Positions 136 through 45,298 of a stretch of 64,000 nt of DNA are shown here, piece after piece. Each line of letters opens with the position of its first letter. The first letter of the stretch is position 1. Position numbers and translations under genes: made by a program. The stretch is from Actinobacteria bacterium UBA7524 (GTDB lineage: Bacteria > Actinomycetota > Coriobacteriia > Anaerosomatales > UBA912), in the NCBI GenBank assembly GCA_002478275.1, contig DLMY01000016.1, forward strand, positions 1-64,000, written 5' to 3'. A model generated the notes under the pieces. That model was not told where the DNA came from and did no database searches. It worked only from the letters and a program-made list of their open reading frames with translations.

Positions 136-196
136 CCCTTAAGCATCGTTATGAAGGGTAGGCCCGGCAGCCTGGCGAAACAAAGGAATAGCGGAT

Positions 197-300
197 GTGT
201 CTCCGAGCTTCATCACCTACAGCGTGAAGGTGCCATGGTGTTGGAGCCGATAGGGTGTCGAAGGAAACGACGGCGCCTCCCGGCTTGGAAAGGGGACCAC
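197..300 (+). promoter_or_regulatory. Moco/Tuco (molybdenum/tungsten cofactor) riboswitch, P3-less variant
   Basis: CTCCGAGC...CACCTA...ATGGTG...GCCGATAGGGTG..GGAAAC..CGCCTCCCG..TGGAAAGG signature; P1 gtctcc/ggggac; upstream of a Mo/W-bisPGD enzyme. Confidence 0.85.
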
Positions 301-369
301 GGACGTGACGCTGCTTGATCCTGCGTCGTCACATCCGCCCTACCTGGGGTAAGGGAGGCGCATACGTAT

Positions 370-544: not shown

Positions 545-3500
545 ATGGGCAAAATCGACAAGGGTAAAGGGGTGAACCAGGGCCTGAGCCGGCGCGACTT
601 CCTCAAGACCGGCGCAGTGGCTGCAGCAGCGGCCGCCGCAGGCGCTGAGATCGCCGCTCGCCCGTCAGTTGCCGCAGCCAACACCGTTCCTCAGGAGACG
701 TACCACACGACCTGTCCGTACTGCTCCGCGAGCTGTGGTCAATTCGTTGACGTTGCAGCGAGCGGTAATGTCGAGACAGAGATACTGGACGTCTACGGCG
801 ATCATATGTCGCCGATGAACGATGGTGGTCTGTGCGCGAAGGGCGCTGGCACGTTCCAGCTCGTGAACAACCCCCGCCGCCTTGGCGCGTGGGCTGGCTC
901 GCACCCGGTCAATGACGTGTTCGCGTATGACGAGAACTACGCCGATGGTGTCGCGTACAAGCGGACCGGCAACAATGCGTGGAACAAGATGGACCTGCAG
1001 GACGCGCTCGACGAGATCGCCCCGTTGCTCGTGGACGCTCGCGGGGACGTGACCTACGCGAACGGCTACAACTCCAAGAGCATCGCGTTCTTCGGCTCGT
1101 CGCACATGAACAACGAGCAGAACTACACGTATCGCCGCCTGATCGCTCAGTTCGGCACGTCGAACGTCGAGCATCAGGCCCGTATTTGACACTCCTCGAC
1201 GGTGGCCGGTCTGGCCGCCGCATTCGCACGAGGAGCCATGACCAACAACTGGAGCGATATCGGTAATGCATCGCTCGTGGTCGTCATGGGAGCCAACCCG
1301 TCCGAGAACCACCCGGCATGTATGGCGCACATCAATGCTGCGCGCGCCAAGGGCGGTAAGCTGGTCGTCATCGACCCGCGCAAGACCCGCACGGCTGTTC
1401 AGGCAGACCGTTACATCCGCATCCGTCCCGGTACCGACATCGCGTTCATCAACGGCGTGGTACGAGGTGTCATCGCAGAGATGGAAGACACAGCGAGCGG
1501 TCTTGGCTGGATTCCGGTCGCGACCCGCGAGACGGTTCGCACTAAGTTCTTCGCCTTCTTGAACCAGGGCGACGACACTCGCACGTTCTTCACGGACGGC
1601 GACGCCACCGGGGCGAGCACGACGGTTGCTGTTACCGACTTCTCGAAGTACACCGATGCACGTCTGATCGTGGATGGTTCGGACTACGCCCGTCAGACCA
1701 TTGGATCCGGTCCTACGGGAATCTCCAACTTCCCGCAGTACGCCTCGACCATCGATGGAGATCCGGATACGGTCTACAACTGGCTCAAAGCGCATGTCGA
1801 TCCGTACGACTCTGCTACGGTGACTGATGTTTGTGGCTGTACCGCTGATGACCTGACCTACGTGGTTCGCGCCTTCATCGACAACGGGCGTTGTTCGAGC
1901 GTCGGTGCTGTTACTGGCGCCAACTCTCAGGACCCTCGCGTCGCTGGTTATAAGTGCACCACGATGCTCTATGCGATGGGTCTGACCCAGCACACCCACG
2001 GCGCTTCCAACGTCAAGTCCTTTGCGGTCATCCAGACCCTCATGGGCAACGTCGGTCGTGCCGGCGGCGGCATCAATGCGCTGCGCGGAATCCACAACGT
2101 CCAGGGCTCGACGGACATGGGCAACCTGCAGCACCTGATCCCGTTCTACTCGGGCAACCCGACGGCGATGAGCTACATTGATGCTTCGGGTAATCCGGAT
2201 CCGACGAAGAACCCCGCGAACTACAAGGACTCGTTCGGCAAGTACATGGACATGCTGTGGGGCTCGCCGCTCAACGGTACCGCGGGTCGTACTGAGATGG
2301 ACATGAGCTACGGCGACGCGTATCGTCCGGCCACCCAGGCTGGCGTTCCGGGTCTGCAGCAGTGGGGCTTCTTCAACATGACGTACGACTTCTTCGGTGG
2401 CGGACAGACATGGAAGACGGCGTTCACTTCTGGTGGTTATGTCGACCGGGAGAAGACGGATGCGCTCTACGACCTGTGGCCCAAGACCAACGGTNNNNNN
2501 NNNNNNNNNNNNNNNNNNNNNNNNNNNNNNNNNNNNNNNNNNNNNNNNNNNNNNNNNNNNNNNNNNNNNNNNNNNNNNNNNNNNNNNNNNNNNNNNNNNN
2601 NNNNNNNNNNNNNNNNNNNNNNNNNNNNNNNNNNNNNNNNNNNNNNNNNNNNNNNNNNNNNNNNNNNNNNNNNNNNNNNNNNNNNNNNNNNNNNNNNNNN
2701 NNNNGAGCCGAACCAGAAGTGGATCCGCGAGGGCTTCTACCAGCTCGACACGCTTGTTGTCACGGAGCTCTACGAGACCGAGACGGCTGCAGTCAGCCGC
2801 AAGTCGGACGGCGTCACGTATCTTCTCCCCACGTGCTCGCACGTGGAAGAGGCGGGTAGCGTCTCCAACTCCGGACGCGTGCTGCAGTGGCGTGAGCGTG
2901 CAAGCAAGCCCCGCGGCAACAGTAAGTCCGACCTTGAGCTCCTCTTCAGGTTCGCCAAGGCCCTGAACGACGCAGATGCGTTCACGCACATCACCGATGT
3001 GTGGGACGGCTTCGGCGGGGCGTATGTCGGCCTCGATGCGTTCCAGGTCCTCTACGTCGACCCCTTCAACGACGCTCCGTTCGGTGGGGGTGCCGGCACG
3101 TGGAATGGCGACCTTGATACCTTCGAGGACGTCTCGGCGACCATGGAGGTCTGGCGTGGAGCTGAGACTGCGCCCAAGAACGTTACCGTCTACGGCACCG
3201 AGGTTTTCTGCGACCTGCTCTTCAGGCGCCTGTGCACCCTGAATACCGGCACGTCGTGGCTCTACACGGACGCCTACAACACATCTAAGGGCTCAGGCAG
3301 GCTTCCTGCTGCCCCGTATACTGCTCCAGGTGACGGCGGCCTACAGATTGAGTGGCGGGTCAACAACCGGGCCAAGAGCCGTGATACGCGCGACCCGGTG
3401 GCCACGCTGGCGTACCCTGCATGGGGCTACTCATGGCTGGTCAACCGCCGCGTGCTCTACAACAACGGTGACGTACCCGGTGACCAGCTTGATGGTTACC

Positions 3501-4312
3501 AGCGCCCGGAGAAGCTGGCGGCACTGTTCGCTACCACCAACGCGACGAACGGTCGTGCGCTCAACTACTCCAACTCTTACCGCTTCTACCACCGCCTGGC
3601 GGACAAGCCGGACGTCACGAGCAGCAAGCACGTTCTGCCAGGACGCTTCCCGGCCCACACCGAGCCGTACGAGACGCTTCGTGGTGACCTGCTGTCGACC
3701 TTCGGTCGCAACACCAAGGGCGGCCCGAAGTGGGATCTCGTGCCTTCGGACACCACGGTTTGGGTGCCGCTCGCATCCGAGGCCGGCGGTTCGAAGACCA
3801 ACACGACGCCTGCAGGCATCGTGACGGCAGCCAGCAATGAGGGTCTTCCGGACATCGCACAGCCGCTCGTCATGACGTCGATTCGCTGCGTCGAGCACTT
3901 CCAGGGCGGTCCGATCACCCGGAACAACCCGTGGAACGTTGAGGCGGAGCCGGAGCCGTGGGTCGAGATCAACTCGTTCGATGCGGCTGCTCGCGGCATC
4001 AAAGACGGCGACTACATCAACATCTACACGGTTCGTTCGGACAGCTTCGAATCTGGTATCGCCCGCCCGGCGGTGCGCATGACCGGTTCGAAGGAGAGCG
4101 GCACGTGGAACAAGGGCTACATCGCCCGCGTGGGTGTCGGCCTTCAGTCCAACCAGAGGGTTGGACGTGGCGTCGTCGCAATTCCGTGGCACTGGGGAGA
4201 CAAGGGTCTTTCCACCGGTGCGCGCGCGAACGACCTGTGCATCGATGCAAGCGATGCGAACACTGCGATTCCCGAGTACAAGGCGTGTGTCTGTTGGATC
4301 ACGAAGGCTTAA
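545..4312 (+). CDS. fdhA: Selenocysteine-containing formate dehydrogenase alpha subunit (FdnG/FdhA-like), Tat signal
   Basis: ORFs 545-1189 and 1202-4312 are in frame across TGA 1187-1189, giving QARI-U-HSSTVAGL; SRRDFLK Tat motif; CPYCSASC 4Fe-4S motif; GGGINALRG..NVQGSTD; C-terminal PEYKAC; includes an N gap. Confidence 0.93.
1200..1220 (+). promoter_or_regulatory. Bacterial SECIS element of fdhA
   Basis: Hairpin CGGTGGCC-GGTCT-GGCCGCCG starting at +11 after the in-frame UGA, with GG at the start of the loop. Confidence 0.8.
2495..2704. other. Scaffold gap (210 N) inside fdhA
   Basis: Run of N; flanks do not overlap. Confidence 0.99.
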
Positions 4313-4326
4313 GGAGGTGACGAGCA

Positions 4327-5220
4327 GTGGCTAACGTAATGGCTGTATTCCAGGACGTAGATAGGTGCATGCGCTGTAACGGCTGTGTGATCAGCTGTAA
4401 GCGCACGTGGAAGATGAGAGCAGACAACTGGGGTGTTCACAAGACGGCTCCCGACTCAAGGGTCATGATCAAGTCGCAGAAGCGTCTCGACATGGGTCCG
4501 TTCATCCGGTTCAGCTGCTGGCACTGCCCCGATCCTCCCTGTGTTGGACGATGCCCGTTCAACGCACTCACGAAGGAGGAGACCGGAGCGGTCTCGATCG
4601 ACCCGACGCTGTGTTCGCCCGGTGCTACCAATCCGGCGAACGGCAAGACCTGTACCCGTCAGTGCGTGGCAGACTGCCATCGCGGCGGTTATCCCAAGGT
4701 CGGCGTCGGCAGTGACGGCCAGTACACCGATTCGAAGGCGTGGAAGTGCACTCTGTGTCACGGACGCTCTGGAGATATCGAGGGTCTCGATGCTGAGACC
4801 CAGGCGGAGTACCAGGCCAAGTACGGCAACCCGCTTCCCACGAACTACAATTCGACCACGGGTGCTATGACCGTGCCGGAGACCAACCATGAGCCGAGCT
4901 GTGTGTATACATGCCCGGCCAAGGCGATGAAGTGGGATTCGAGGGCGAACATCCAGGCATGGATCTCAAACTCGGACAACGGGTACATCTCGTACATGGG
5001 TAATGGTAGTATGTATTGGGCGAGCTCGAAGTACGTGCTTGCCGCACCGAAGGCAGACCCGTTCATCGAGGACCACATCACGCCGCTCCTTTCGAGCGTG
5101 CTCAACGAGTCGGTCGCCAAGGCCGCTTTGGTCCCGACACTGGTCGCCGGTGGTGTGTTCGCAGTGATCGCTCGTCGGATCGCACTTGCCGACGAAGCCG
5201 CGACGGTTGGAGAGGGGTGA
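4327..5220 (+). CDS. fdhB: Formate dehydrogenase iron-sulfur beta subunit with C-terminal membrane anchor
   Basis: CMRCNGCVISC, CWHCPDPPCVGRC, CTLC, CVYTCP motifs; hydrophobic C-terminal helix; AAGGAGGT RBS. Confidence 0.85.
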   Translation: MANVMAVFQDVDRCMRCNGCVISCKRTWKMRADNWGVHKTAPDSRVMIKSQKRLDMGPFIRFSCWHCPDPPCVGRCPFNALTKEETGAVSIDPTLCSPGATNPANGKTCTRQCVADCHRGGYPKVGVGSDGQYTDSKAWKCTLCHGRSGDIEGLDAETQAEYQAKYGNPLPTNYNSTTGAMTVPETNHEPSCVYTCPAKAMKWDSRANIQAWISNSDNGYISYMGNGSMYWASSKYVLAAPKADPFIEDHITPLLSSVLNESVAKAALVPTLVAGGVFAVIARRIALADEAATVGEG

Positions 5221-5225
5221 TCTGC

Positions 5226-6491
5226 ATGCGGAGAAGTCACGTTCTCATAGTGGTCATAGCCGCAGCGCTCGCGTTCGCCCTGGCTCCGGGTGTCGCGATG
5301 GCGAACAACGCGATTCACGGCGGGTACTCCATGGACACTGATGCGTGCGCCGGTTGTCACCGTGCGCACACGGCTGCAAGCAGCATCCGGTGGACCAAGA
5401 CCGACGGCTCGGAGGGTAGCGCCTTGCTGCTCTCGACTGCCGACGAGGTCTACGAGTTCTGTCTCACCTGCCATGGTGCCGACGCCGCAGGAGCCGCCAC
5501 GAACGTGTGGGACGGCATCTACGAGGGCACCGAAGAAGGTACCCAGTTCGACATGCTCAACGGTGGCGGTTTCAGCGACGCCGACTTCCCGACCACGCAC
5601 CTGTATACGGGTGTCAGCTGGCCGGCATGGGGTGGCTCGACCGATGCAGGACTGCTCGGTGAGCTCATCGATGCCCCTGAAGTCGTGATGTCGTGCTCGA
5701 CCTGTCACGATGTGCACGGTAGCTCCAACTACCGCTTGCTCAAGGATGTCGTGAACGGCCGTACGGTCGGCGGTTACATCGGCGCCGGTCCGGACCCGAC
5801 CCCCGATCCTTGGGTCATCTCCAACGAGCCGGGCTATCCGGACACGGGCTGGCTGCTTCACGAGCCGGGTGCTGTCCAGGTAGCGGGTTACACGCCCAAC
5901 TACACCGAGCCGATGTACTCCAAGGCCCCGGATGAGGATCCGACCAAGGGTATCAGCGGCTGGTGTGCGGCCTGTCACGTCCAGTACCTCGAGCCGACTT
6001 CGACCCCGGTCGCGGGCGGTGCGTGGTGGGACGTCAACCAGACGGTCGACGCTCTTGGTGAGTCGACGACCGATGGCGAGCTCCTTGAGTGGCAGGAAGG
6101 TCGCGTGTACGACGTAACGGACGGCTTCGGCTACGTCGTGCGTCACAAGCACCCGATCAACGTCGAGCTGGCGAACTACCTTGGCGCACGTGATCTCAAC
6201 GTGAACACGCCGGGTCTTCCGCTTGCACACAGCTCCGGTGACGTGGCGACCCACGACCTCACCGACTGGATCGACTGTCTGACCTGTCACAGGTCTCATG
6301 GTTCTGGTTCCTCGATGACGGGCTTTGCCCGCGTCGCTGACTCCACGAACCCTGAGGAAGACACGGGTCCTGGCGGCGTTGCGCCGGCCTTTGGTCAGCA
6401 GGACACCGAGGGTCCCGACGATCCTCGGAGGGGCAATGCGTTGCTCCGTTTGGACAACCGCGGCGTGTGCGAGTCGTGTCACAACAAGTAG
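5226..6491 (+). CDS. Secreted hexaheme c-type cytochrome, OmcS/CwcA-like
   Basis: Sec-type signal peptide (A-M-A); six CxxCH (CAGCH, CLTCH, CSTCH, CAACH, CLTCH, CESCH); ends CESCHNK. Confidence 0.88.
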   Translation: MRRSHVLIVVIAAALAFALAPGVAMANNAIHGGYSMDTDACAGCHRAHTAASSIRWTKTDGSEGSALLLSTADEVYEFCLTCHGADAAGAATNVWDGIYEGTEEGTQFDMLNGGGFSDADFPTTHLYTGVSWPAWGGSTDAGLLGELIDAPEVVMSCSTCHDVHGSSNYRLLKDVVNGRTVGGYIGAGPDPTPDPWVISNEPGYPDTGWLLHEPGAVQVAGYTPNYTEPMYSKAPDEDPTKGISGWCAACHVQYLEPTSTPVAGGAWWDVNQTVDALGESTTDGELLEWQEGRVYDVTDGFGYVVRHKHPINVELANYLGARDLNVNTPGLPLAHSSGDVATHDLTDWIDCLTCHRSHGSGSSMTGFARVADSTNPEEDTGPGGVAPAFGQQDTEGPDDPRRGNALLRLDNRGVCESCHNK

Positions 6492-8224
6492 ACACCACTG
6501 CATCGCAGTTGCGGGAGTCTCGCAACGACGGGAAGGGCCGGGTAACCCCCGGCCCTTCCTTTACGTCGCTTCGGGCGGGTGGCATCAAGTCGGCGCTTCT
6601 GCTAGCGGGCACTTGGGTCGCAGTATCGGTGGCGGCAGCGGGTGAATTCGTGTTCGGTACGACTACCGTAGGCAGTGTCGATCCGGCGGTCGTGGTCGCC
6701 TCGGCGACCCTCGCCGGATCGGCGCTTCTGCTGGCCGTGCACGGTTCCCCTGCAAGTAGGGGTTCTTCCGCACGAGCGCATCCAAGTCCATCATGGGCGG
6801 CTGTCTTGATGATAGTCGCTGGTTCCTTGGTCGCTCAGCTGGGAGCCCCGCTACTCCTGTTCATGAGCCGCAAGACCGACGCGCCTTCAGGCGCGATCGT
6901 GGCGTTTTGGTCCACGGGCTTCTGGGGGCTTGCCCTGGTCCTCGCGGCNNNNNNNNNNNNNNNNNNNNNNNNNNNNNNNNNNNNNNNNNNNNNNNNNNNN
7001 NNNNNNNNNNNNNNNNNNNNNNNNNNNNNNNNNNNNNNNNNNNNNNNNNNNNNNNNNNNNNNNNNNNNNNNNNNNNNNNNNNNNNNNNNNNNNNNNNNNG
7101 CCCTGGTCCTCGCGGCAATCGTCTTCCAGCGGTCGACACGTCGCAGCCCGGCTGTCGTGCTCTCCGCCGGCATGCTGGCCCTCATCTCTGCAGCCGGGGT
7201 TCTCGGCAACTGGGAGCGCCCTAGCTCCTTGTCGCTCCTCACCCGCTTCACTGCTGAGCAACTCACGATCGGCGGCGCAGGTCTACTGTGGGCGGCAGCG
7301 GTGTGCGTCCTTGGGTATCTGGCCAGGCGGCACGGATGGGCACCCGTGGGCAAGTGGGTGGCTGCGTCGGGAGTGGTTGGCGCCGTCATTCTGTCGGCGA
7401 CCCAGGGTGGCCTGGGCGCCATCGTCGCGACTCCCGTCACGGTCTGGGTTCACGCTGTGTGCGCAGGGGCGGTTTTCGTCCTGACCATCACGCTCGCCTC
7501 GACAGGCCGCCTCGCCACTGCCGGAACGGCAATGGCGTTCGCTCCCGCGTTCATGTCACTTCTCACGCTTGTCGAGGTCGCGGTCGGGATGCTTGGACCG
7601 CGTCCGATACTGGTGGAACCCGTGATGTGGGCATCTGCGGCGGGTATTGTGGCCGCTGTCGTCGCGGCGAGTGTGGAGACAACTGAAGTCGCGGCAGGGG
7701 AGTCCGAGTTTCACTCCGGCCCTCCGCCAGTCCGTCTTAGCCTCGCGATCGCCGCCGGCTTCGCGGTCCTGCTGGCCGTTGTCGGCATGTTCTCGCCTGG
7801 TGTTGCGGCCTCGGTGCGCGGGACCTTTTCCGGTGGCGAGGCGTTCGCGGCAGATTTCGTGCTGTCCGGGTGGAGGACGGTCGGGGGATGGCTCGCGCTT
7901 TCCTCGGCAGGTATCGCTTTAGGAATGGCTACAGGTCGCCTGCACCATCGCGCGGTGTTGGCTTCTTCGGGTGCGACCCTGGTGGCGGGGGCTGCATGGT
8001 TCGCGCTGCGTTATACCCCACTTCACACCTGGATGAGCTGGATACCGGCGGAGATTCAGCAGGATTTCGGGACTGAGTATGCACATATTGTGTTTTCCGG
8101 ACTCATCCTCCCCTGGCAGGCTGCTGCGCTGGTACTATCCGCCGTAGTAGCCAGTGCGGCTGCGTGGTTGTCGATACGGCAGCGGATGCGCACCGCAGGC
8201 GGCGAAACGGTCGCCGCGAGCTGA
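6467..8224 (+). CDS. Polytopic membrane protein (possibly DMT/EamA-related); true start uncertain, probably downstream
   Basis: Many hydrophobic segments; ORF spans an N gap with duplicated flanks; the listed start lies upstream of the terminator. Confidence 0.55.
   Translation: MRVVSQQVDTTASQLRESRNDGKGRVTPGPSFTSLRAGGIKSALLLAGTWVAVSVAAAGEFVFGTTTVGSVDPAVVVASATLAGSALLLAVHGSPASRGSSARAHPSPSWAAVLMIVAGSLVAQLGAPLLLFMSRKTDAPSGAIVAFWSTGFWGLALVLAXXXXXXXXXXXXXXXXXXXXXXXXXXXXXXXXXXXXXXXXXXXXXXXXXXXALVLAAIVFQRSTRRSPAVVLSAGMLALISAAGVLGNWERPSSLSLLTRFTAEQLTIGGAGLLWAAAVCVLGYLARRHGWAPVGKWVAASGVVGAVILSATQGGLGAIVATPVTVWVHAVCAGAVFVLTITLASTGRLATAGTAMAFAPAFMSLLTLVEVAVGMLGPRPILVEPVMWASAAGIVAAVVAASVETTEVAAGESEFHSGPPPVRLSLAIAAGFAVLLAVVGMFSPGVAASVRGTFSGGEAFAADFVLSGWRTVGGWLALSSAGIALGMATGRLHHRAVLASSGATLVAGAAWFALRYTPLHTWMSWIPAEIQQDFGTEYAHIVFSGLILPWQAAALVLSAVVASAAAWLSIRQRMRTAGGETVAAS
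6531..6562 (+). terminator. Intrinsic terminator after hexaheme cytochrome
   Basis: GGAAGGGCCGGG-loop-CCCGGCCCTTCC followed by TTT. Confidence 0.7.
6949..7099. other. Scaffold gap with duplicated flanks (likely artefact)
   Basis: GCCCTGGTCCTCGCGGC occurs on both sides of the N run. Confidence 0.9.
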
Positions 8225-8244: not shown

Positions 8245-9156
8245 ATGGATCGGATCACCCGTATTCTCACGGTCTTTCTTGTGCTCGGCGCACTCCTGGT
8301 GGGTGCGGGGTGTAAGAAGCAGATGGTGACCGTCCGCACCGGCGAGATAGTCCTGTGTACCGAGGGTGAGGTCATCTCGGACACCACAGAACAGCTTTCG
8401 GTGCCCGCCGCCGATGTCGGCGACTACAAGGTCACCACTCACGTGGAGACGTGTGAGCTGCACAAGAAGCTCGCTGCGCTCTATGAGGCGGCCCAGGCGG
8501 CGATCGCGGCTGGAGATCTCGACAGTGCCCTGGCGCGCCTTAAAGAACTGACAGGACTCGATCCCTCTTACCGCAGGGCCGCCCAGCAGCTCGCCGACAT
8601 CGAGGCGGGCAGGACTCCTCCGACGGATCGCACGGCTGGCTCCGGCGGGGGTGTCGCGACAGGCGGTGGCGCTTCGAGCGGAGGCGCCTCTGGCGGCGGT
8701 TCGAGCAGCGGCGGTTCGAGTGGTACGACGCCGCCAGACGATGACGCCAACGTGCCGACCGGCCCGGTGATGAATCTCGTCAACTACGTCCCTGACACGC
8801 TTCCTGGTTTCAACGGACAGGATCTGATCGTTGATGTGTTCGCGCTCACCAGGAACTACGTCCCGACGTCGAAAGGCTCGATCGCCACGCTCGTGATCGT
8901 CGTCGAGCAGTTCCAGGACGAGGCGGCCGCCAAGAAGGCGCTCGACCAGACGATCAAGGTCGACTACCCGCAGGGAGGCGCCGGGCTGACGGTCAAGGGC
9001 CGTACGGGTTACTTCGGAGCACGTCAGGGCTTCGGCGTCGTGGCGTTCGCCGATGGAGCCCTGCTCGTGGCGATAGAAGGCGGCGCACATTCCAGCACGG
9101 GAGGCACCGCACTCAAAGCACCGCTCACGACGCTCGCTGACGCGGTACTTCCTTAA
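8245..9156 (+). CDS. Lipoprotein of unknown function
   Basis: Lipobox LLVGAG-C; TPR-like helical segment; Gly/Ser-rich linker. Confidence 0.75.
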   Translation: MDRITRILTVFLVLGALLVGAGCKKQMVTVRTGEIVLCTEGEVISDTTEQLSVPAADVGDYKVTTHVETCELHKKLAALYEAAQAAIAAGDLDSALARLKELTGLDPSYRRAAQQLADIEAGRTPPTDRTAGSGGGVATGGGASSGGASGGGSSSGGSSGTTPPDDDANVPTGPVMNLVNYVPDTLPGFNGQDLIVDVFALTRNYVPTSKGSIATLVIVVEQFQDEAAAKKALDQTIKVDYPQGGAGLTVKGRTGYFGARQGFGVVAFADGALLVAIEGGAHSSTGGTALKAPLTTLADAVLP

Positions 9157-9254: not shown

Positions 9255-12200
9255 ATGAGAACGAACTCGCACTCGCACCGGGCGCTTAAGGTGTTTCTGA
9301 CGCTGTGTCTGGCCTTCACGCTGGTACCTGTGGTGAATCCTCAGCCCGCGAGCGCGGTCTGGACGGACGCTGGCTGGTTAGGCGTGACGCTGCGGTGCGT
9401 GACCTTCATCGACTCGAACGTCGGCTTTGTGGCGGGAGATTCAGGCGTGATCATCAAGACGGAGAACGGCGGTGTGAGATGGCGCGTCGTCCGCTCCGGC
9501 GGTACCGAGAGGATCACGGGGATCACCTTCGCTGACAGCACCACCGGATGGGCGGTCGCGCAGTCCGGGGTGGTATACGGGACCACGGATGGCGGGGACA
9601 CGTGGAGCAAGATCTCCGATGGACTCGCCGCTTCGTATTCCGGTCCGAACATCTACGACACCATATTCGCCGGCGTGAACAGGTTGTTTGCGGTCGGAGG
9701 CGCGCTGGGCACGCAGCCAGCCGTCTGGGACAGCGGGAATGGTTCGTACAGCTGGGGTCAGGCGGCCCTGCTCGGTTCCTATGACCCGTCCGGCGACTAC
9801 ACGAGCCCGTGGCCGCGTGATGGCCTGGGCGCTTTCTATGGTATCGACCAGTTCGACGGTACAGTGTGGGTCGTGGGCCAGGACTGGCTCAAGACGCCGA
9901 CCCGCAGCGTGGTATGGCGCAACAACAGCGGCAGTCCCAACTGGACCGAGCAGCAGCTCAAGACGAGCACAGGCGTGTTCGAGACGGTGCCCTACTACGA
10001 CATCTCGTTCTCCTCGGCTACTAATGGAGTAGCAGTCGGTGGCACGGGGAAGGTCCACACGACCACGACGGGTGGGACCACGTGGACTCCGCGTACGTCG
10101 GGTGTGACCGTGGACCTCAAGGGCGTATCGATCGCGCCGGGCACTTCGAGTGGATGGGCTGTCGGCGCATCGAACACTTTGCTGCGTACCACGAACGGAG
10201 GGGCGAACTGGACCGCGCAGGCGTCGGGTGTGTCACCGGCCCCAGCCTGGGAGGATGTGTACGCGATCAGCGCGACGAAGGCGGTCGCCGTAGGTAGCTC
10301 CGGGCGTGTCGTCTACACCACAGATGGTGGCACCACATGGACACAGCCGGCGCAATTCCCCGCCGCCCCTGTGATGACGACCTTGACGTCGAGCTCTCAC
10401 CCCTCAGGGACCTGGGTCAAGTCGACCGCTCTTTCCGCCGCATGGAGCGCCACGGGCGAGCCGCCGCTCGGTTACGGATGGGAGCTCGATACTTCACCGG
10501 CAACGGTGCCTACGGTGCAGAAGACGACCGGGACTACGCTGTCGACCACGGCGCCCGGCAGCGGTACCTACTACTTGCACGTGGCGGCGAAGGACCAGTG
10601 GAACAGGTGGAGTGCGCCGTTGCACAGACAGGTGCTCGTCGATGTCACTGTGCCTACGGCCATCGATGACGTCTATGCGGGAGGATACGTCTTCTCGGCG
10701 AGGGTCACGGTAAGCGCGTCGGATGCGCATTCCGGAGTGAAGCGCGTCGAGTATCGGGTCAACAGCGGGTCCATCGTGCAGGTCAGTGGCGCTCAGGCCA
10801 TCATCGACCTGGGGGCCGGTGATCACCAGCTCGAGTACCGGGCAGTCGACAATGTCGACAATGTGAGCAGTTGGGTCTCTAAGAGCGTCAACGTCGAGAA
10901 TCCGACGCCACCAGAGATGACATCGCTTACGTCCTCGACACATCCGGCCGGTGCGTGGACCGCTTCGACGGATATCGGAGCGAGTTGGAGTGCCACGGGT
11001 GTGGCTCCACTCGGGTACGGTTGGGTGGTCGACATGTCTCCGGGTACGGTTCCCGGGGTGCAGAACACGTCCGCTACCACGCTTTCAACCACTGTGGCTG
11101 GCAGTGGGACGTACTACCTGCACGTCGCGGTGCGTGACGTCTACGGTCGCTGGAGCGCACCGATGCATAGGCAGCTGCTGGTCGACGTCACCGTGCCCGA
11201 AGTGGCCGATGACGTATTCGAAGGCGACTACGAGGCTCGCGCACGCATCACGTTGAGTGCATCTGACGCCCACTCTGGCGTACAGCGAATCGAATACCGC
11301 ATCGATGGTGGCAGCGTGGTCCAGGTTGCCGCTTCGCAGGCGGTCGTCGACATCGATGGCGTCGGTGAGTATGAGATCACCTATCGCGCAATCGACAATG
11401 CGGGCAATGCGAGTGGTTGGATGACGGCCGACGTGAGCGTCGTGCCACCAGCAGGTCCTGAGATGACGTCCTTGACCTCGTCGAGCCATCCTGTGGGGAC
11501 CTGGACAGCGAGCACTTCGGTAAGCGCCGCGTGGAGCGCGACAGGTGATGCGCCGCTTGCCTACGGATGGGTGCTCGACACGTCTGCCGGAACCGTGCCC
11601 AGCGCGACGAACACCTCGAACACGACCCTTTCCACAACCGTCGCGGGCAGCGGCACTTACTACCTCCACGTACGCGCACGTGACAGCTACGAGCAGTGGA
11701 GCGCCACTTCACATCGGCAGCTGCTGGTCGACGTCACCCTGCCGCAGTCAGTCGATGACGTGCTGTCGGGTGGTTACACGACATCCGCCAAAGTCACCGT
11801 CTCGGCATCCGATACCCACTCCGGCGTCCAGCGCATCGAGTACCGTATCGACGGAGGAGACATCGTACAAGTCACGGCATCACAGACAAGCATCGATTTC
11901 GGTGTAGGAGAGCATGCTCTCAGTCACCGCGCCGTCGACAACGCGGGCAACGTCAGTGGATGGACGAACAGGGCTGTGACGGTCTCGCCGCCCGCTCCGC
12001 CAGTTATGACGGAGCTTGGATCGTCCTCTCACGCACAAGGTACCTGGACTTCCTCGTTGAACGTGTCCGCTGCGTGGAGCGCAAGCGGCACCGGTATCAC
12101 GGGATACGGATACGTGCTGGACACGTCGCCCGGCACGGCTCCTGGTGTGCAGAATACGACAGGCACCACGCTTTCGACCTCCGTTGCGGGCAGTGGTACC

Positions 12201-14042
12201 TACTACCTGCACGTCGCGGCGAAGGACGCGTACGATCAGTGGAGCGTCCCGTGGCACCGGCAGCTGCTCGTCGACGTCACCGCTCCCGCAGCGGCTGACG
12301 ATGTGTTCGCCGACGGCTACGTGATCTCGGCTCACGTCACTCTGACCGCCACAGATGCTCACTCAGGCGTGCAGAGGATCGAGTACCGGATCGACGGCGG
12401 GTCCGTAGTGCAGGTGACCGGTGCTCAGGCCGGCATCGACTTTGGTATCGGAGAGCGCCTTCTGGAGTACCGTGTCGTCGACAACGCCGGGAACGTGAGT
12501 GCGTGGACCCCCAAGACAGTGAGTGTCTCGCCGCCTCCACGACCCGTGATGACGCAGGTCAGCTCGTCGACGCATCCGGAAGGCGCGTGGGCGACCTCGA
12601 CGTCGTTGTCTGCGACCTGGAGTGCCTCGGGAACGGGAATCGACGGGTATGGGTGGATCGTCGATCAGTCTCCCGATACCGTCCCTGTGACAGCGAACAC
12701 GACCGGGACCAGCATGTCGCAGTCTCTCGCGGGCAGCGGCGTCTACTACCTCCATGTGGCCGCACGCGACGCCTACGGTCAGTGGAGTCTCCCGTGGCAT
12801 CAGCAGATCCTGGTGGACAACACGGCTCCGGAACCATCGGATGACATCTCACCGGACCCGTATCCGGGTGCTGCGCAGGTCACGATCTCCGCGAGCGACG
12901 CGCACTCCGGTGTGGCTCGCATCGAATACCGTATCAACGGTGGCGCGGTCCAACAGGTTGCCGCAGCTCAGGCGGCGGTCGACATCGTGCCCGCCACGCA
13001 GTCGATCTCGTACCGTGCCGTGGACAGGGCGGGCAACGCTTCCTCATGGGTCACAAAGCAGATCACTGTGGAGTTGCCCGTCGTGCCCGTGGAGGGCAAG
13101 GACCGCTATGCGACGGCCATAGCTGCCGCTGACATCGTGTACCCGGGCATCATGCCCTCCGGCCCTGACGGCAACCGCACCGTGGTCCTCGCCTCCGGTG
13201 AGAACTGGCCGGACGCTCTGGCTGCCTCGGGACTTGCGGGTGCGCACAGAGCCCCACTGCTGCTCACGAAATCGACCTCGCTCCCGACGACCGTGGCGCA
13301 GAAGATCGCGTCGCTCGGCGCCAACCGCGTGATCATCGTGGGAGGCACGGCAGCGGTCTCCGACGCGGTCGCGACGGCAGCCGGGCAGGCGGTGGGTGGC
13401 GCCAGCCGGGTCTCACGCATCGCAGGATCGCACCGTTATGCGACGGCGAACGCCATCGCCGCTGCCACGGTGGCCGTTCCGGGCCGTACGGCTTGGGACG
13501 GCACGGCGTTCGTCGCGACGGGAGACAATTTCCCCGACGCGCTGGCAGTGGCTCCGCTCGCCGCCGACAAGGGCTATCCCTTGTACCTGGCGGCACCCAC
13601 AGGCATAAGCGATGCCACACTCGCTGCGATGAAGGCGGCGGGGGTCAAGCGCGTGTACCTGCTCGGCGGCACGGCGGCAGTAAGTCCGTTGACCGAGAGC
13701 CGCATCGCAGGTACCGGCATCTCAGTGGCCGGGCGCTGGGCGGGTTCGGACCGCTTCGCCACGGGTCGCGTGATAGCAGAGAATTCGCTGAATTCGGGGC
13801 TCACGGCGCGTGAGGTCGCTTTGGCTACCGGACGTAACTTCCCCGATGCGCTCGCGGGCGGCGTGATGCAGGGCCTGACCGGCTCGATCATGGTGCTCAC
13901 CGAGAGTACGCGACTGCACGCGCAGGCCGAGGCGGTTCTTGCCGCTAACGTGTCCTCGATCCATGAGATACGCTTCGTCGGAGGCCTTTCCGCGCTTGCC
14001 CAAGACGTGCGTGACAGGGCCGAGGAGGTCGTTGCGCCGTAG
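9255..14042 (+). CDS. Cell-surface protein: YCF48/BNR-type beta-propeller, five Ig-like double-domain repeats, cell wall binding repeat 2 (CWB2) anchor
   Basis: Signal peptide; repeated TxxGGxxW motifs; five ~181-aa repeats; C-terminal G.DRY.T / G.NFPDALA / GG.AAVS motifs x3. Confidence 0.88.
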   Translation: MRTNSHSHRALKVFLTLCLAFTLVPVVNPQPASAVWTDAGWLGVTLRCVTFIDSNVGFVAGDSGVIIKTENGGVRWRVVRSGGTERITGITFADSTTGWAVAQSGVVYGTTDGGDTWSKISDGLAASYSGPNIYDTIFAGVNRLFAVGGALGTQPAVWDSGNGSYSWGQAALLGSYDPSGDYTSPWPRDGLGAFYGIDQFDGTVWVVGQDWLKTPTRSVVWRNNSGSPNWTEQQLKTSTGVFETVPYYDISFSSATNGVAVGGTGKVHTTTTGGTTWTPRTSGVTVDLKGVSIAPGTSSGWAVGASNTLLRTTNGGANWTAQASGVSPAPAWEDVYAISATKAVAVGSSGRVVYTTDGGTTWTQPAQFPAAPVMTTLTSSSHPSGTWVKSTALSAAWSATGEPPLGYGWELDTSPATVPTVQKTTGTTLSTTAPGSGTYYLHVAAKDQWNRWSAPLHRQVLVDVTVPTAIDDVYAGGYVFSARVTVSASDAHSGVKRVEYRVNSGSIVQVSGAQAIIDLGAGDHQLEYRAVDNVDNVSSWVSKSVNVENPTPPEMTSLTSSTHPAGAWTASTDIGASWSATGVAPLGYGWVVDMSPGTVPGVQNTSATTLSTTVAGSGTYYLHVAVRDVYGRWSAPMHRQLLVDVTVPEVADDVFEGDYEARARITLSASDAHSGVQRIEYRIDGGSVVQVAASQAVVDIDGVGEYEITYRAIDNAGNASGWMTADVSVVPPAGPEMTSLTSSSHPVGTWTASTSVSAAWSATGDAPLAYGWVLDTSAGTVPSATNTSNTTLSTTVAGSGTYYLHVRARDSYEQWSATSHRQLLVDVTLPQSVDDVLSGGYTTSAKVTVSASDTHSGVQRIEYRIDGGDIVQVTASQTSIDFGVGEHALSHRAVDNAGNVSGWTNRAVTVSPPAPPVMTELGSSSHAQGTWTSSLNVSAAWSASGTGITGYGYVLDTSPGTAPGVQNTTGTTLSTSVAGSGTYYLHVAAKDAYDQWSVPWHRQLLVDVTAPAAADDVFADGYVISAHVTLTATDAHSGVQRIEYRIDGGSVVQVTGAQAGIDFGIGERLLEYRVVDNAGNVSAWTPKTVSVSPPPRPVMTQVSSSTHPEGAWATSTSLSATWSASGTGIDGYGWIVDQSPDTVPVTANTTGTSMSQSLAGSGVYYLHVAARDAYGQWSLPWHQQILVDNTAPEPSDDISPDPYPGAAQVTISASDAHSGVARIEYRINGGAVQQVAAAQAAVDIVPATQSISYRAVDRAGNASSWVTKQITVELPVVPVEGKDRYATAIAAADIVYPGIMPSGPDGNRTVVLASGENWPDALAASGLAGAHRAPLLLTKSTSLPTTVAQKIASLGANRVIIVGGTAAVSDAVATAAGQAVGGASRVSRIAGSHRYATANAIAAATVAVPGRTAWDGTAFVATGDNFPDALAVAPLAADKGYPLYLAAPTGISDATLAAMKAAGVKRVYLLGGTAAVSPLTESRIAGTGISVAGRWAGSDRFATGRVIAENSLNSGLTAREVALATGRNFPDALAGGVMQGLTGSIMVLTESTRLHAQAEAVLAANVSSIHEIRFVGGLSALAQDVRDRAEEVVAP
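10368..13075 (+). repeat. Five diverged intragenic tandem repeats of 543-546 bp
   Basis: P[VE]MTx[LV]xSSxH starts recur with ATG at 10374, 10917, 11463, 12006 and 12549; each unit has YYLHV and DxHSGVxR[IV]EYR. Confidence 0.85.
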
Positions 14043-20018: not shown

Positions 20019-21335
20019 ATGGCTACCGAACACCGCGAGAGCACGATGAAGCGCGGCTTGTCGTTCACGTTCACGCTACTGACCTGGGCCACGATCGGCC
20101 CACCGGTTCTGCTCGGTCTGATCCTGTCGGCGCTCTTCGCCTTCTGGTGGCTTCACCTTACCGTCTCGGAGATGTTCCCCGTGATAGTCGCAGGCGGAGC
20201 GGTCATGGTCGTCCTGTCCGTTCCCGGGACCATCTTGTGGCGCTGGCAGTTCAAGGAGCGCATCCTGCGTCCGCTGCGTGACCTGGGCGGCGTGATGGTC
20301 GAGGTCGGCCAGGGGGATCTCAGGCTTCGTGCGGAGATCGTGCACGAGGACGAGATCGGGGTCTTGGCGGCCGAATGCAACAATCTCATCGAGTCACTGG
20401 CCGGTATCGCCGGACAGGTTCGCAGATCCGCAGAGTCGGTCTCCGCGGCGGCGACGGAGCTTTCGGCATCATCCCAGGAGATATCGTCGTCCACGATGGA
20501 GATATCCTCGTCCGTGCAGCAGATCGCTCACGGTGCCGAGCTGCAATCGCGCAAGGTCGAGGAGACATCTCACGCGATGGAGTCGATCAACTCTACGACC
20601 GACGAGGTGTCGCGTCAGGCCGAGGAAGCCGCGACGACCAGCGAGGAGGCCGCCCGGGTCGCCGCGCACGGGGAGCGAGCAACGGACGAGGCGATCGTCA
20701 AGATCGCCGAGGTTCAGCGCGCCGTCGAGACGCTTGCAGAATCGGTGGAACTCCTCGGCAAGCGTAGTAGCGAGATCGGGAGTATCGTCGACGTCATCAC
20801 GTCGATCGCGGACCAGACCAATCTGCTTTCTCTCAACGCGGCTATCGAGGCCGCGCGTGCGGGCGAGTCCGGCCGCGGCTTCTCGGTCGTGGCCGACGAG
20901 GTCCGCAAACTGGCCGAAGGCTCCGGGAAGGCCGCCGAGAAGATCGGGGTACTCATCAAGGAGGTCCAGGCCGAGACGGCCAAGGCTGTCAAGTACATGG
21001 AGATCGGCACGCGAGAGGTCGAGCAGGGCAGCGAGGTGGTGGGCCGTTCCGGTGAGGCGCTCCGGCAGATCAACGACGCCGTGTCACGAACGGCGGTGCT
21101 CGCCGAGCAGATAGCCCATGCGATGAAGGGCCAGGCTTCGCGCACGTCTTCGGTCGACAAGGCGATGCACGACATCGCGGCCGTCGTCGAGCAGAACGCG
21201 GCCTCTGCCGAGGAGACCGCTGCAGCGGCGGAAGAGCAGACCGCCTGCATGGAGGAAGTCACCTCTGCCGCGCAAGAGCTCTCGGACATGGCCCAGCGGC
21301 TTGAAGAAGCCGTGCGGATGTTCAAGGTCGAGTGA
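20019..21335 (+). CDS. Methyl-accepting chemotaxis protein (2 TM, HAMP, no extracellular domain)
   Basis: [45 protein letters not shown] motif. Confidence 0.95.
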
Positions 21336-21342
21336 GGTATCC

Positions 21343-21840
21343 GTGGCTGAGATGCTCGAACAACAGGGACGCACCTTCGTGATCTTCCAGGTATCGGGCG
21401 AGGAGTACGGGCTCGATATCGACAAGGTCCAAAGCATCGTGCGATACGAAGCGCCTACTCCGGTGCCCCGGTGTCCGGAGTCGGTGATGGGTGTCGTGAA
21501 CCTGAGGGGCCAGGTCATCCCTGTAGTCGACGTTGCGCGGCGCCTGGGCAGAGAGCCCTTCGTACCCACGGCCACATCACGCATCATCGTGGCGGAAGGT
21601 GAGGCCGGCTTGTTGGGGCTGGCCGTGGACGCCGCCAGTGAGGTTGCTGTGATATCTCCGGACTCCATCCAGGACACACCGGAGTCGGTGCTCAGCGCAG
21701 AGAGCGTCGACGTGTTCGAGGGCGTCGCCGAACGCGACGGCGCGCTCGTCATACTTCTCAACCTCGATCGTGCCGTGCCCGGAAACGAGTACGGCAGACC
21801 TGGGGATGAGATGCGATCGGAAGGTGGCGGTGATGTCTAG
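21343..21840 (+). CDS. cheW: Chemotaxis coupling protein
   Basis: GVVNLRGQVIPVVD; GLAVD. Confidence 0.93.
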   Translation: MAEMLEQQGRTFVIFQVSGEEYGLDIDKVQSIVRYEAPTPVPRCPESVMGVVNLRGQVIPVVDVARRLGREPFVPTATSRIIVAEGEAGLLGLAVDAASEVAVISPDSIQDTPESVLSAESVDVFEGVAERDGALVILLNLDRAVPGNEYGRPGDEMRSEGGGDV

Positions 21841-22204
21841 GACGGTACTTGTTGTCGACGACGCTGCGTTCATGCGCATGATGATCCGCGATATCCTCGC
21901 CAAGGAAGGATATGTCATCCACGAAGCCGTCAATGGCAGGGACGCCGTCGAGAAGTACCGCGAGGTGCATCCGGACCTCGTGACCATGGATATCACGATG
22001 CCGGAGATGAGCGGACTCGAGGCCTTGCGCGAGATCCGCGCCGTCGACCCGGAGGCGCGCGTCCTGATGGTCAGCGCGATGGGGCAACAGAAGATGATCG
22101 TCGAGGCGCTCGAGTCCGGGGCGATGGACTTCCTTGTCAAGCCGTTCCAGCCGACCAAGGTGCTTGAGACGATCAAGAAGTGCTTGCAGCCACGTAACCC
22201 CTGA
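21833..22204 (+). CDS. cheY: Single-domain response regulator
   Basis: VLVVDDAAFMRMMI, DITMP, SAMGQ, KPF. Confidence 0.93.
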   Translation: MSRTVLVVDDAAFMRMMIRDILAKEGYVIHEAVNGRDAVEKYREVHPDLVTMDITMPEMSGLEALREIRAVDPEARVLMVSAMGQQKMIVEALESGAMDFLVKPFQPTKVLETIKKCLQPRNP

Positions 22205-22218
22205 CCGGCGGATGCCAT

Positions 22219-23343
22219 ATGCGCACAACCATCAAAGTACTCGTCGTCGACGATTCTGCGCTCATCCGGCAGATGCTGACCCGTGCGCTCTCGGTCGATC
22301 CCCGCATCGAGATCGTCGGAACCGCCAAGACCGGTGTCGAGGCTATCGAGAAGGCGCGGGACCTGGATCCCGATGTGATCACGCTCGATATCCAGATGCC
22401 GGAACTGGACGGGCTCGAAGCATTGCCGCACATCACCAAGCACAGCGATGCCCGGGTCGTGATGCTCAGTTCGGTCGATGATCCTGATACCACGTACCAG
22501 GCGCTCTCTACCGGGGCGGTCGACTTCATCTACAAGCCCCGGGGAGGCATGGCCAGTTCGCTGACCGAACTCACCGAGTTGCTGCTCAAGAAGATCCGTA
22601 CGGCGTATCGCATCGATCCGAGCAAGGTGGATGGTGTCCGGGCTGCCGGCATAGAGCAGCTCCAGACCCAAGCCGGCGTCGCCGAGGCCGCGCCCGAGGT
22701 CGTGTCCGAACCTGGCGATGGCCTTCCGCCCATTGCAGTCGAGGTTCACGGTGGCGCCCCCCCTTCTCTGATCGTGGCCATCGCTGCTTCCACCGGCGGT
22801 CCACCGGCCTTGGAGTGCGTGTTCCGCGGATTGGTGTCGTCCCTGCCGGCCGCGTATCTGGTTGTCCAGCACCTGCCACCAGGCTTCACCTCCTCGCTTG
22901 CGAGAAGGCTCTCCTCGGCAGGTGATGTGGAAACCGTAGAGGCGGTCGACGGGATGGCGGTCACGGCCGGCCGGGCGTATATCGCCCCGCACGGTCTGCA
23001 CATGCGCGTGGTGAAAGAGGACGGCCAGGTGCGCCTTTCGCTCACCGACGATGCCCCCGTTCACGGAGTCAGGCCTGCCGCGGATCCGCTCTTCGAAAGC
23101 CTCGCGGCACAATTCGGCGACCGGGCCGTCGGCGTGGTGTTGACGGGGATGGGTTCTGATGGGGCGCGAGGTCTGCTTGCGATCCGCCAGGCGGGGGGCA
23201 GTACCATCGTCCAGAACGAGGAGACCAGCGTGGTGTGGGGCATGCCGGGCGCCGCCATGAAGCAGGGGGCTGCGCGGCACGTCGTTCCCATCGGCCTGGT
23301 TGCTGCGGAGATCCGTCGGGTGAGTAGAGACAGGTCCTCATGA
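22219..23343 (+). CDS. cheB: Chemotaxis response regulator methylesterase
   Basis: Receiver domain plus ASTGGP, VQHLP, TGMGSDG. Confidence 0.95.
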   Translation: MRTTIKVLVVDDSALIRQMLTRALSVDPRIEIVGTAKTGVEAIEKARDLDPDVITLDIQMPELDGLEALPHITKHSDARVVMLSSVDDPDTTYQALSTGAVDFIYKPRGGMASSLTELTELLLKKIRTAYRIDPSKVDGVRAAGIEQLQTQAGVAEAAPEVVSEPGDGLPPIAVEVHGGAPPSLIVAIAASTGGPPALECVFRGLVSSLPAAYLVVQHLPPGFTSSLARRLSSAGDVETVEAVDGMAVTAGRAYIAPHGLHMRVVKEDGQVRLSLTDDAPVHGVRPAADPLFESLAAQFGDRAVGVVLTGMGSDGARGLLAIRQAGGSTIVQNEETSVVWGMPGAAMKQGAARHVVPIGLVAAEIRRVSRDRSS

Positions 23344-25526: not shown

Positions 25527-26134
25527 GACTGGACGAACTGTCGGATCTCCAGAAGGATGCCTTGCGCGAGGTGGGTAGTATCGGCGCCGGACATGCCGCC
25601 ACTGCGCTGTCGCAGCTGACGGGCAGGCCGATAGATATCACAGTGCCCAGGCTCGAACTGATCCCGTTCTCGCAGGTACCACATGCGCTCGGCGGACCGG
25701 AGCAGCTTGTCGGGGCGGTATACACGCGCTTGCTGGGTGATGTGGACGGCGGGATGCTCTTCATGACCCCCAGGGACTCATCGCTCGCGCTCGTGGACCT
25801 TCTGCACAACCGGGCGCCCGGCACCACCAAGTCCTTCGGTCATGACGAGGAGCGCCTGATCACGCATGTGGCCTCGATTCTCTCCGCAGCGTACGTGGCT
25901 GCGATCGCGCGTCTGGCCGATCTCGACGTGCTGCCTTCGAGTCCTCTGTTCGCACTCGACATGGCAGGAGCGATCCTGCAGGTCGCGATGGCGGAGGCGG
26001 GCATGAAGGCGGAGAACGCCCTGCTCGTCCGCACTACCTTCAACGACGAGGCCACGAGCACTGACGCGATACTGTTCTTCATGCCGGACCCGGACAGCCT
26101 CGAAGTGATACTCGGCAGGCTGGGAATGGCGTGA
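25523..26134 (+). CDS. cheC: CheY-P phosphatase CheC family
   Basis: DALREVGSIGAGHAATALSQL. Confidence 0.9.
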   Translation: MRLDELSDLQKDALREVGSIGAGHAATALSQLTGRPIDITVPRLELIPFSQVPHALGGPEQLVGAVYTRLLGDVDGGMLFMTPRDSSLALVDLLHNRAPGTTKSFGHDEERLITHVASILSAAYVAAIARLADLDVLPSSPLFALDMAGAILQVAMAEAGMKAENALLVRTTFNDEATSTDAILFFMPDPDSLEVILGRLGMA

Positions 26135-41547: not shown

Positions 41548-41620
41548 CATACGATTGTAGTTAATGCCGCAGCAGACTGATACTATTGTCAAGGATCGGC
41601 CTACCGAAGGGGAGGGCAAC

Positions 41621-45285: not shown

Positions 45286-45298
45286 TCATCGAGACCAG

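Follow-up and report, generated by a model that had tools for sequence, protein, structure and literature searches.

The periplasmic formate dehydrogenases (FDHs) of Desulfovibrio use multihaem c-type cytochromes as electron acceptors, and one type, FdhABC3, has a dedicated tetrahaem subunit; the FdhAB enzymes reduce the cytochrome TpIc3, which feeds menaquinone via the Qrc complex, as set out in the sections on these enzymes in PMC13397495. Since FdhAB and FdhABC3 operate in this manner, the wiring of an FDH to a c-type cytochrome without a quinone subunit is an established principle. FDH-N of E. coli (FdnGHI; 1KQF) combines an outward-facing catalytic subunit, which contains selenocysteine and is exported by twin-arginine translocation (Tat), with a beta subunit held in the membrane by a single C-terminal helix and a gamma subunit, a cytochrome b. 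Here, a third arrangement is described from Actinobacteria bacterium UBA7524, a monoderm member of the Anaerosomatales (Coriobacteriia). The window analysed is the first 64 kb of contig DLMY01000016.1 (C9) of this genome, which is 1.8 Mb in size and 83% complete. It contains the genes fdhA and fdhB for the catalytic and iron-sulfur subunits of an FDH and, directly behind them, cyt6, which encodes a hexahaem c-type cytochrome of the OmcS family. The product of cyt6 is probably the dedicated acceptor of an outward-facing, membrane-tethered FDH and feeds an extracytoplasmic cytochrome network.

OmcS is the best-known cytochrome "nanowire", of which the physiological role, the electron donor and the origin are still debated. 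To our knowledge, nearly all that has been learned about OmcS comes from Geobacter, a host with two membranes. Arbour et al. (2020) reported one OmcS homologue (28% identity) in a metagenome-assembled genome of a Coriobacteriales member from an anode biofilm, and the term "formate dehydrogenase" is absent from that paper (PMC7399161). OmcS-like genes of syntrophic sulfate reducers are discussed in PMC10553843 without a link to FDH. No statement connecting an OmcS-type cytochrome with an FDH was found in open-access PMC or bioRxiv full text. The original prediction, made from the sequence of the window, had proposed a candidate for an undescribed system. For the link between an OmcS-type cytochrome and FDH this agrees with the open literature; the coupling of FDH to a c-type cytochrome as such is already known from Desulfovibrio, by the sections of PMC13397495 on these enzymes. 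What differs here is the OmcS-family hexahaem partner, the membrane anchor of the beta subunit and the monoderm host.

Cultured Anaerosomatales use formate or H2 as electron donor and Fe(III), sulfur or thiosulfate as acceptor, and Parvivirga hydrogeniphila grows on formate or H2 with Fe(III), according to the physiological descriptions in Khomyakova et al. (2022; PMC9686372). In the latter species, which belongs to the same order as the host of the window, the FDH genes (MCL4079382-3) lie within a cluster of multihaem cytochrome genes (MCL4079376-90). In the part of that paper which describes the cluster, and on which this comparison is based, the neighbouring cytochrome is neither identified as an OmcS homologue nor proposed as the FDH partner.

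A Tat-exported selenocysteine FDH alpha subunit, a membrane-anchored iron-sulfur beta subunit and a secreted hexahaem cytochrome 5 nt behind the beta stop codon had been predicted, and all three were recovered (Table 1). The twin-arginine signal of FdhA scores 25.2 bits with Pfam TAT_signal (PF10518; cut-off 22.7) and is accompanied by the domains Molybdop_Fe4S4 (PF04879), Molybdopterin (PF00384) and the dinucleotide-binding Molydop_binding (PF01568). Bases 2495-2704 of fdhA are masked as N. The gene has a single in-frame TGA (1187-1189), corresponding to U215. The surrounding sequence, EHQARI-U-HSS (U215-H216), is in register with the selenocysteine-His pair of the FDHs of D. gigas (1H0H) and D. 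vulgaris, and NALRG..NVQGSTD is in register with the catalytic Arg motif of 1H0H and D. vulgaris FdhA. When the selenocysteine-containing segment (window positions 1100-2494) was compared with solved structures, all 22 chains retrieved at E ≤ 1e-30 were either FDHs or the FdhF subunit of CO2 reductase. Judged by its sequence, the enzyme is a formate dehydrogenase. NCBIfam equivalog models gave scores under their cut-offs (TIGR01553, 419.2 vs 814.2 bits; TIGR01591, 301.8 vs 666.25 bits) with a query that included the masked stretch and long insertions, and for this reason FdhA is placed in a divergent clade.

The original prediction had taken FDH-N-type enzymes as its point of comparison. FdhA turned out to be nearer to the Desulfovibrio FdhAB structures 1H0H (E 2.5e-91) and 6SDR (E 1.3e-89) than to E. 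coli FdnG (E 4.4e-73). The Desulfovibrio/Nitratidesulfovibrio enzymes are the best solved relatives of both subunits; they are Tat-exported and contain selenocysteine as well, and the sections on FdhAB and FdhABC3 in PMC13397495 name a multihaem c-type cytochrome, not a membrane quinone subunit, as their acceptor. Unlike these enzymes, the FDH of the window has a catalytic subunit that is about 240 residues longer and a beta subunit with a C-terminal membrane helix, and its host has no outer membrane. The third subunit of FdhABC3 is a tetrahaem c3, whereas cyt6 is a hexahaem protein with OmcS as its closest solved relative. By this comparison, cyt6 may work like the cytochrome subunit of FdhABC3, but the system is not an FdhABC3 member.

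FdhB contains 16 Cys residues in four groups, 4Fe-4S dicluster domains and one C-terminal hydrophobic helix (residues ~262-287). Its closest solved relative is FdhB of D. vulgaris (6SDR_B, E 3.4e-8). In its outward-facing Tat-exported selenocysteine subunit and the single anchor helix of the beta subunit the enzyme resembles FDH-N of E. coli; unlike the latter, the operon of the window has no gamma gene. The predicted lack of an FdnI- or NrfD-type gene was confirmed: cytochrome b (PF01292) gave no match on contig C9, NrfD (PF03916) gave none in the genome at its completeness of 83%, and the cluster contains neither. Matches to PF01292 in this genome are confined to the contigs C23, C34 and C45, and a search for a cognate membrane partner among them showed that each of the three adjoins another enzyme. 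The cytochrome b of C23 is the third gene of a canonical selenocysteine FdnGHI operon, of which the C-terminal part of the alpha subunit alone scores 990 bits with TIGR01553 (cut-off 814), and that of C34 adjoins genes for an FeS protein and an aldehyde-oxidoreductase (AOR)-like protein. The cytochrome b of C45, considered as the missing partner of FdhAB, was set aside since it is preceded by the genes for the small and large subunits of a NiFe hydrogenase. In the three relatives that were checked with two cytochrome b queries, no such gene was found within 10-13 kb upstream of fdhA. The FdnGHI operon (G000 contig C23:6590-11619, locus L010) has its own cytochrome b and its own molybdenum/tungsten cofactor (Moco) riboswitch (61.7 bits). 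The genome thus has two differently wired FDHs, both under Moco control.

The fdhB stop codon (5218-5220) and the cyt6 ATG (5226) are separated by 5 bases. The cyt6 protein comprises 421 amino acids with CXXCH motifs at positions 41, 79, 157, 247, 351 and 415, and its N-terminal signal peptide ends in VAMA, followed by NN. Among 8000 candidates scored, 1676 proteins belong to its family at E ≤ 0.001. Pfam Cytochrom_c3_2 matches with 18.5 bits, under its cut-off of 25. A search of the solved structures with the single cyt6 sequence yielded nothing at E ≤ 10. A profile built from 59 homologues (alignment A1) matched OmcS (6EF8 chain A/6NEF) with an E value of 8.3e-10 and 41.5 bits, in an alignment that covers OmcS residues 8-406 and matches up all six haem motifs together with the flanking His residues of CHxxH, CHDxHG and CHxxHxS. 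Comparison of the AlphaFold2 model of cyt6 with 48,161 representative chains using VIA-align gave OmcS as the sole chain with Z ≥ 5 (Z 7.7, rmsd 5.9, 225 residues aligned; next chain, Z 2.5). On the evidence of the profile, cyt6 is a true but distant homologue of OmcS, and the likeness noted in the original prediction amounts to homology.

OmcS of Geobacter sulfurreducens (GSU2504) and cyt6 share a length of about 400 residues, six CXXCH motifs in the same order with the last one at the C-terminus, a loop-rich structure and secretion, and the motifs CXXCHxxH, CSxCHDxHG and CLxCHxxH align between them. The relatives of cyt6 also have an NHL-repeat neighbour, as omcS has in GSU2505. The two proteins differ in that their kinship is detected by profile only, in the monoderm actinobacterial host of cyt6, and in the location of cyt6 in an FDH operon (a hydrogenase operon in relatives) and not beside omcT. 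In the 59 sequences of the alignment, exactly six His residues outside the motifs are invariant (H31, H48, H125, H164, H309 and H358). This number would be enough for six bis-His haems, and it fits a monomer as well as a polymer. H48, which forms part of the sequence CAGCHRAH, aligns with His16 of OmcS, which we take to be the ligand shared between subunits; Wang et al. in 2019 are said to be the source of this assignment. Invariance of H48 by itself does not imply inter-subunit ligation. In OmcS, a distal His of one subunit ligates the haem of the neighbouring subunit, by the passage on this contact in PMC12307469.

The synteny of fdhB and cyt6 was examined in 301 sampled genomes of the class, that of the window among them. 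Members of the cyt6 family were present in 101 genomes (E ≤ 1e-20), all from the order to which the host itself belongs, and an FdhB orthologue in 82 (E ≤ 1e-40). As had been anticipated, the cytochrome gene lay directly 3' of fdhB on the same strand in 81 of these 82 genomes, among the matches listed. The two genes are 8-59 nt apart in 80 of these and 359 nt apart in the remaining one; the single exception to the pairing is a partial fdhB match in a genome that is 61% complete. With the cytochrome in this position in 81 of 82 genomes, the adjacency is not due to chance. In a sample of 401 genomes of the phylum, the family profile matched in 13, of which 10 lie outside the class. In the three best loci outside the class, from other classes of Actinomycetota, fdhA adjoins the cytochrome gene in each case; in two the order is hydL-cyt6-fdhA, and in the third cyt6-fdhA is preceded by an NHL gene.

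Four relatives (loci L025, L026, L028 and L029 of genomes G215, G165, G107 and G057, respectively) carry a second cyt6 paralogue about 10 kb from the first. In all four, a twin module follows directly after the FDH module and consists of a tetratricopeptide repeat (TPR) gene, an NHL gene, the genes for the small and large subunits of a NiFe hydrogenase and then the gene for an OmcS-like hexahaem cytochrome. A tree that took in every fetched copy (15 rows) separated the 11 FDH-linked from the 4 hydrogenase-linked copies with 100/100 support, and the paralogues are, as far as this phylogeny tells, enzyme-specific. No hydrogenase twin was found in the cluster of the window's genome.

In the proposed mechanism, FdhA would be exported by Tat to the outer face of the cytoplasmic membrane of these monoderm bacteria and be tethered there by the single C-terminal helix of FdhB. 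The Sec-secreted cyt6 would correspond in position to cytochrome b (FdnI) of FDH-N or to the tetrahaem subunit of FdhABC3. Formate would be oxidised at the selenocysteine-Mo/W centre, and electrons would flow through the iron-sulfur chain of FdhA and FdhB to the six bis-His haems of cyt6 and from there into an extracytoplasmic multihaem network. This network would include the 13-haem cytochrome encoded at the end of the cluster and may include the 21-haem NapC/NirT-type cytochrome. From the network, the electrons could leave via the 13-haem cytochrome for Fe(III) or for partner cells, or return to menaquinone via a membrane multihaem protein. The former route fits the formate- and H2-dependent Fe(III) and sulfur respiration described for the cultured relatives. 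We infer that cyt6 docks to FdhB, in which direction the electrons flow and what finally accepts them, be it a mineral, a partner or menaquinone.

Several points weigh against this scheme. The docking to FdhB is read from gene order alone. The cyt6 model is of moderate confidence (pLDDT 67.3), which is expected since it was made without haems, and Foldseek on this model placed OmcS first at a non-significant level (E 0.16, TM 0.27). Transfer of electrons from external formate to an external acceptor builds no obvious proton gradient, so that the cell may need a quinone-linked step, and the window does encode a NapC/NirT-type multihaem cytochrome. If the circuit ran entirely outside the membrane, the cell would conserve no energy by it, except where formate itself is cycled to the exterior. 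As the contig starts 544 bases before fdhA, the genes upstream of it are not visible in this genome. Lastly, no selA was found in the genome, and selB was represented only by two adjacent sub-threshold pieces (contig C9:71215-72256; 143.6 and 38 bits); with a genome that is 83% complete, this is not decisive. The selB-like pieces are located about 7 kb past the end of the window and may be a split or divergent selB.

That the adjacency is functionally meaningless, or that the enzyme is something other than an FDH, is hardly credible. Such a reading could draw on the equivalog score under its cut-off (419 vs 814 bits) and the match to the selenocysteine insertion sequence (SECIS) element under the gathering score, but it is opposed by the close pairing (8-59 nt) seen in 81 of 82 genomes, the selenocysteine-His and Arg motifs in register with solved FDHs and the uniform identity of the 22 best structural matches. 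The rivals that matter concern the onward path of the electrons. It is possible, although the odds are against it, that a non-polymeric cyt6 passes its electrons, as in Desulfovibrio, to a membrane multihaem quinone reductase, with reduction of menaquinone and conservation of energy. FdhA and FdhB are nearest to Desulfovibrio FdhAB, the TpIc3 of which reaches menaquinone via Qrc in the sections of PMC13397495 cited above, the 21-CXXCH cytochrome of the window has both a membrane helix and a NapC/NirT domain, and Khomyakova et al., describing these clusters in cultured relatives, mention "quinol-oxidising multihaems" there (PMC9686372). However, the NapC/NirT cytochrome is encoded 36 kb away, and proteins of the NapC type usually oxidise quinol. 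With this cytochrome in the same window, the bypass of the quinone pool that had been put forward in the original prediction is no more than a conjecture. The filament proposed along with it, with cyt6 polymerising like OmcS into an enzyme-rooted haem wire that crosses the wall to minerals or partner cells with no part for the quinone pool, is unlikely. It is suggested by the full-length homology to OmcS, by the invariant H48 aligned with OmcS His16, and by the CWB2 cell-wall protein and the 13-haem cytochrome with an OmcS-like N-terminal module that follow in the cluster. In 66 of the 82 genomes an NHL-repeat gene precedes fdhB by 3.8-5.4 kb, which points in the same direction, as the NHL gene GSU2505 adjoins omcS in Geobacter and has been suggested to aid OmcS assembly or expression, by the passage on that gene in PMC9070056. 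Yet CXXCHxxH and six distal His residues fit a monomer equally, the existence of separate FDH- and hydrogenase-specific paralogues is easier to reconcile with dedicated docking subunits than with one generic wire, and the lack of energy conservation in a purely external circuit applies to such a filament. Moreover, the NHL gene was not seen in the genome of the window, where the contig ends upstream of fdhA and paralogues of 25-42% identity occur elsewhere.

Operation in reverse, in which outside electrons from a cathode, Fe(0), Fe(II), a partner, or H2 via the twin hydrogenase of the relatives would reduce CO2 to formate for the reductive glycine pathway, is distinctly improbable. The potential of the CO2/formate couple is much more negative than those typical of bis-His haems, which counts against this direction, as do the production of formate outside the cell and the lack of a hydrogenase twin in the cluster of the window's genome. 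Arguments for it are that Desulfovibrio-type W/Mo FdhAB are good CO2 reductases by the relevant sections of PMC13397495, that the account of the Parvivirga FDH in Khomyakova et al. assigns it to CO2 reduction in the reductive glycine pathway (PMC9686372), and that an exported NiFe hydrogenase with its own OmcS-like cytochrome stands beside the FDH module in all four relatives with a second paralogue. A broader idea, quite unlikely, is that OmcS-family hexahaems are modular enzyme-rooted connectors in monoderm Actinomycetota. An exported oxidoreductase (FDH, or NiFe hydrogenase in relatives) would then nucleate a short homo- or heteropolymer of its own paralogue, joined by the N-terminal CXXCHxxH His into the haem of the next unit, crossing the wall and ending in the 13-haem cytochrome, which has the same N-terminal module, at the CWB2 surface layer. 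If this were true, the original role of the OmcS fold would be that of an enzyme-to-surface wire, and where both modules are present, interconversion of H2, formate and CO2 outside the cytoplasm would be possible.

With cyt6 as the dedicated acceptor of the FDH, the locus would point to a specific donor, open to experiment, for a cytochrome of the OmcS type. Gene order links the OmcS fold here to a defined enzyme in single-membrane, thick-walled bacteria; the pairing spans about 80 sampled species of one order and other Actinomycetota, with a hydrogenase version in sister clusters. It is a candidate answer to the question how Gram-positive iron reducers carry electrons from formate and H2 across the wall. 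Since cultured relatives exist (Parvivirga, Anaerosoma), the biochemistry is feasible. From an applied point of view, a catalyst of CO2/formate conversion with a natural link to a haem wire would be attractive for bioelectrochemistry.

Table 1 Features of the FDH-cytochrome cluster and a further cytochrome gene in the window
Feature	Position	Strand	Evidence
Moco riboswitch aptamer, fdhA 5' leader	189..311	+	Rfam RF01055, 74 bits (gathering score 36), E 1.7e-16
fdhA, Tat-exported selenocysteine formate dehydrogenase catalytic subunit with Mo/W-bis(pyranopterin guanine dinucleotide) (Mo/W-bisPGD)	545..4312	+	1255 codons, translated with TGA=U
SECIS-like element over the selenocysteine codon	1184..1242	+	Rfam RF01989 SECIS_3, 47.7 bits, E 2.4e-8, under gathering score 63
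fdhB, iron-sulfur subunit with C-terminal membrane-anchor helix	4327..5220	+	Pfam Fer4_7, Fer4_11
cyt6, OmcS-family hexahaem c-type cytochrome with cleavable signal peptide	5226..6491	+	Six CXXCH, profile match to OmcS
12-bp GC-rich hairpin and TTT: terminator, attenuator or 3'-stabiliser	6531..6562 (hairpin 6531-6559)	+	Fold
Polytopic membrane protein, DMT/EamA-like fold	6467..8224 (open frame; true start after hairpin; 6949-7099 masked)	+	Foldseek on orthologue model
Lipoprotein, lipobox LVGAGC	8245..9156	+	Weak TPR: Pfam TPR_14 under cut-off
1595-aa surface protein: BNR/propeller, Ig-like and three CWB2 cell-wall-binding domains	9255..14042	+	Pfam CW_binding_2, 2.1e-41
13-CXXCH cytochrome, 1209 aa	14301..17930	+	Haem-motif count
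21-CXXCH cytochrome (plus three CX3-4CH), 713 aa	42955..45096	+	N-terminal membrane helix, NapC/NirT Pfam PF03264, 1.1e-9

The RF01055 riboswitch family was also detected upstream of fdhA in six of the eight relatives' loci searched. At the other end of the module, the hairpin behind cyt6 consists of 12 perfect pairs followed by just TTT, and the 112-nt tail in which it lies folds with z = -3.38. A comparable hairpin, with a folding energy of -30 to -38 kcal/mol in a 45-nt window, is located 19-42 nt past the cyt6 stop codon in all 11 loci examined. A terminator had been predicted at this position. The hairpin and its conservation agree with that, but owing to its short run of T it went unlisted in the consensus terminator scan. 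In the hairpin of the window and those of the 10 other loci, the stems share a recurring theme, GGAAGGGCCGGG / CCCGGCCCTTCC, even between distant relatives, and the loops vary; a plain terminator would not require such a degree of conservation. With a conserved riboswitch upstream and a conserved hairpin downstream, the three genes look like one delimited unit, and the layout suggests that the segment from riboswitch to hairpin is probably a single expression unit. The three-gene module of the original prediction sits inside a larger conserved cluster.

Upstream of the FDH module, relatives carry a TPR gene and an NHL-repeat gene. In 16 genomes, including that of the window, the part of the contig upstream of fdhB gave no NHL match; 13 of them have one at another place in the genome and three, again with the window's genome among them, have none at the threshold applied. 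In several of the 16, fdhB lies a few kb from the contig start. The assembly in several of these genomes seems to break near the riboswitch, perhaps because the hydrogenase twin duplicates the TPR-NHL pair.

The polytopic membrane protein encoded behind the hairpin has no Pfam match and belongs to a small, lineage-restricted family (50 homologues) with zero invariant His or Cys residues. An AlphaFold2 model of the orthologue at L005:8191-9726 (pLDDT 88.6) was found by Foldseek to be most similar to YddG (5I20; E 3.5e-4, TM 0.66), followed by SLC35 transporters and LicB. The protein had been considered as a hidden quinone or haem b subunit of the FDH. This candidate was rejected because of the DMT transporter fold and the lack of invariant His and Cys, and the protein is, to judge from the model, not a redox subunit. 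That it transports formate is a guess. It has about 500 residues, with a DMT/EamA fold, extra helices and a beta-hairpin domain, and contains the invariant sequences NWERPSS and QQDYGTEY. Homologues are encoded 3' of cyt6 in L003-L005, G083, G215, G165, G107 and G057; a query search of the loci of the same-family relatives G113 and G129 gave no match.

A match to the lipoprotein was found downstream of cyt6 in all seven relatives' loci searched with the lipoprotein as query, and homologues of the 1595-residue surface protein occupy the same position in L005, G113, G129 and G083. The 13-haem cytochrome has homologues at the end of the cluster in G113, G129, G165 and G107. Its residues 43-153 align with residues 24-166 of cyt6 (BLASTP E 2e-11), so that its first three haem modules resemble the N-terminal part of cyt6. 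Its domain and membrane helix make the 21-haem NapC/NirT-type cytochrome a candidate for joining menaquinone to the haem network outside the cytoplasm. It is followed by a gene for a DUF2085 membrane protein (45215-46036). Between the cytochrome cluster and this NapC/NirT cytochrome, chemotaxis genes are located at 20019-26134 and 41564-42775, encoding a methyl-accepting chemotaxis protein (MCP), CheB, CheA-CheW, CheC and a second MCP. The window further encodes a GAF-GGDEF cyclase (26679-28175) and a Rex-type redox repressor (51487-52143).

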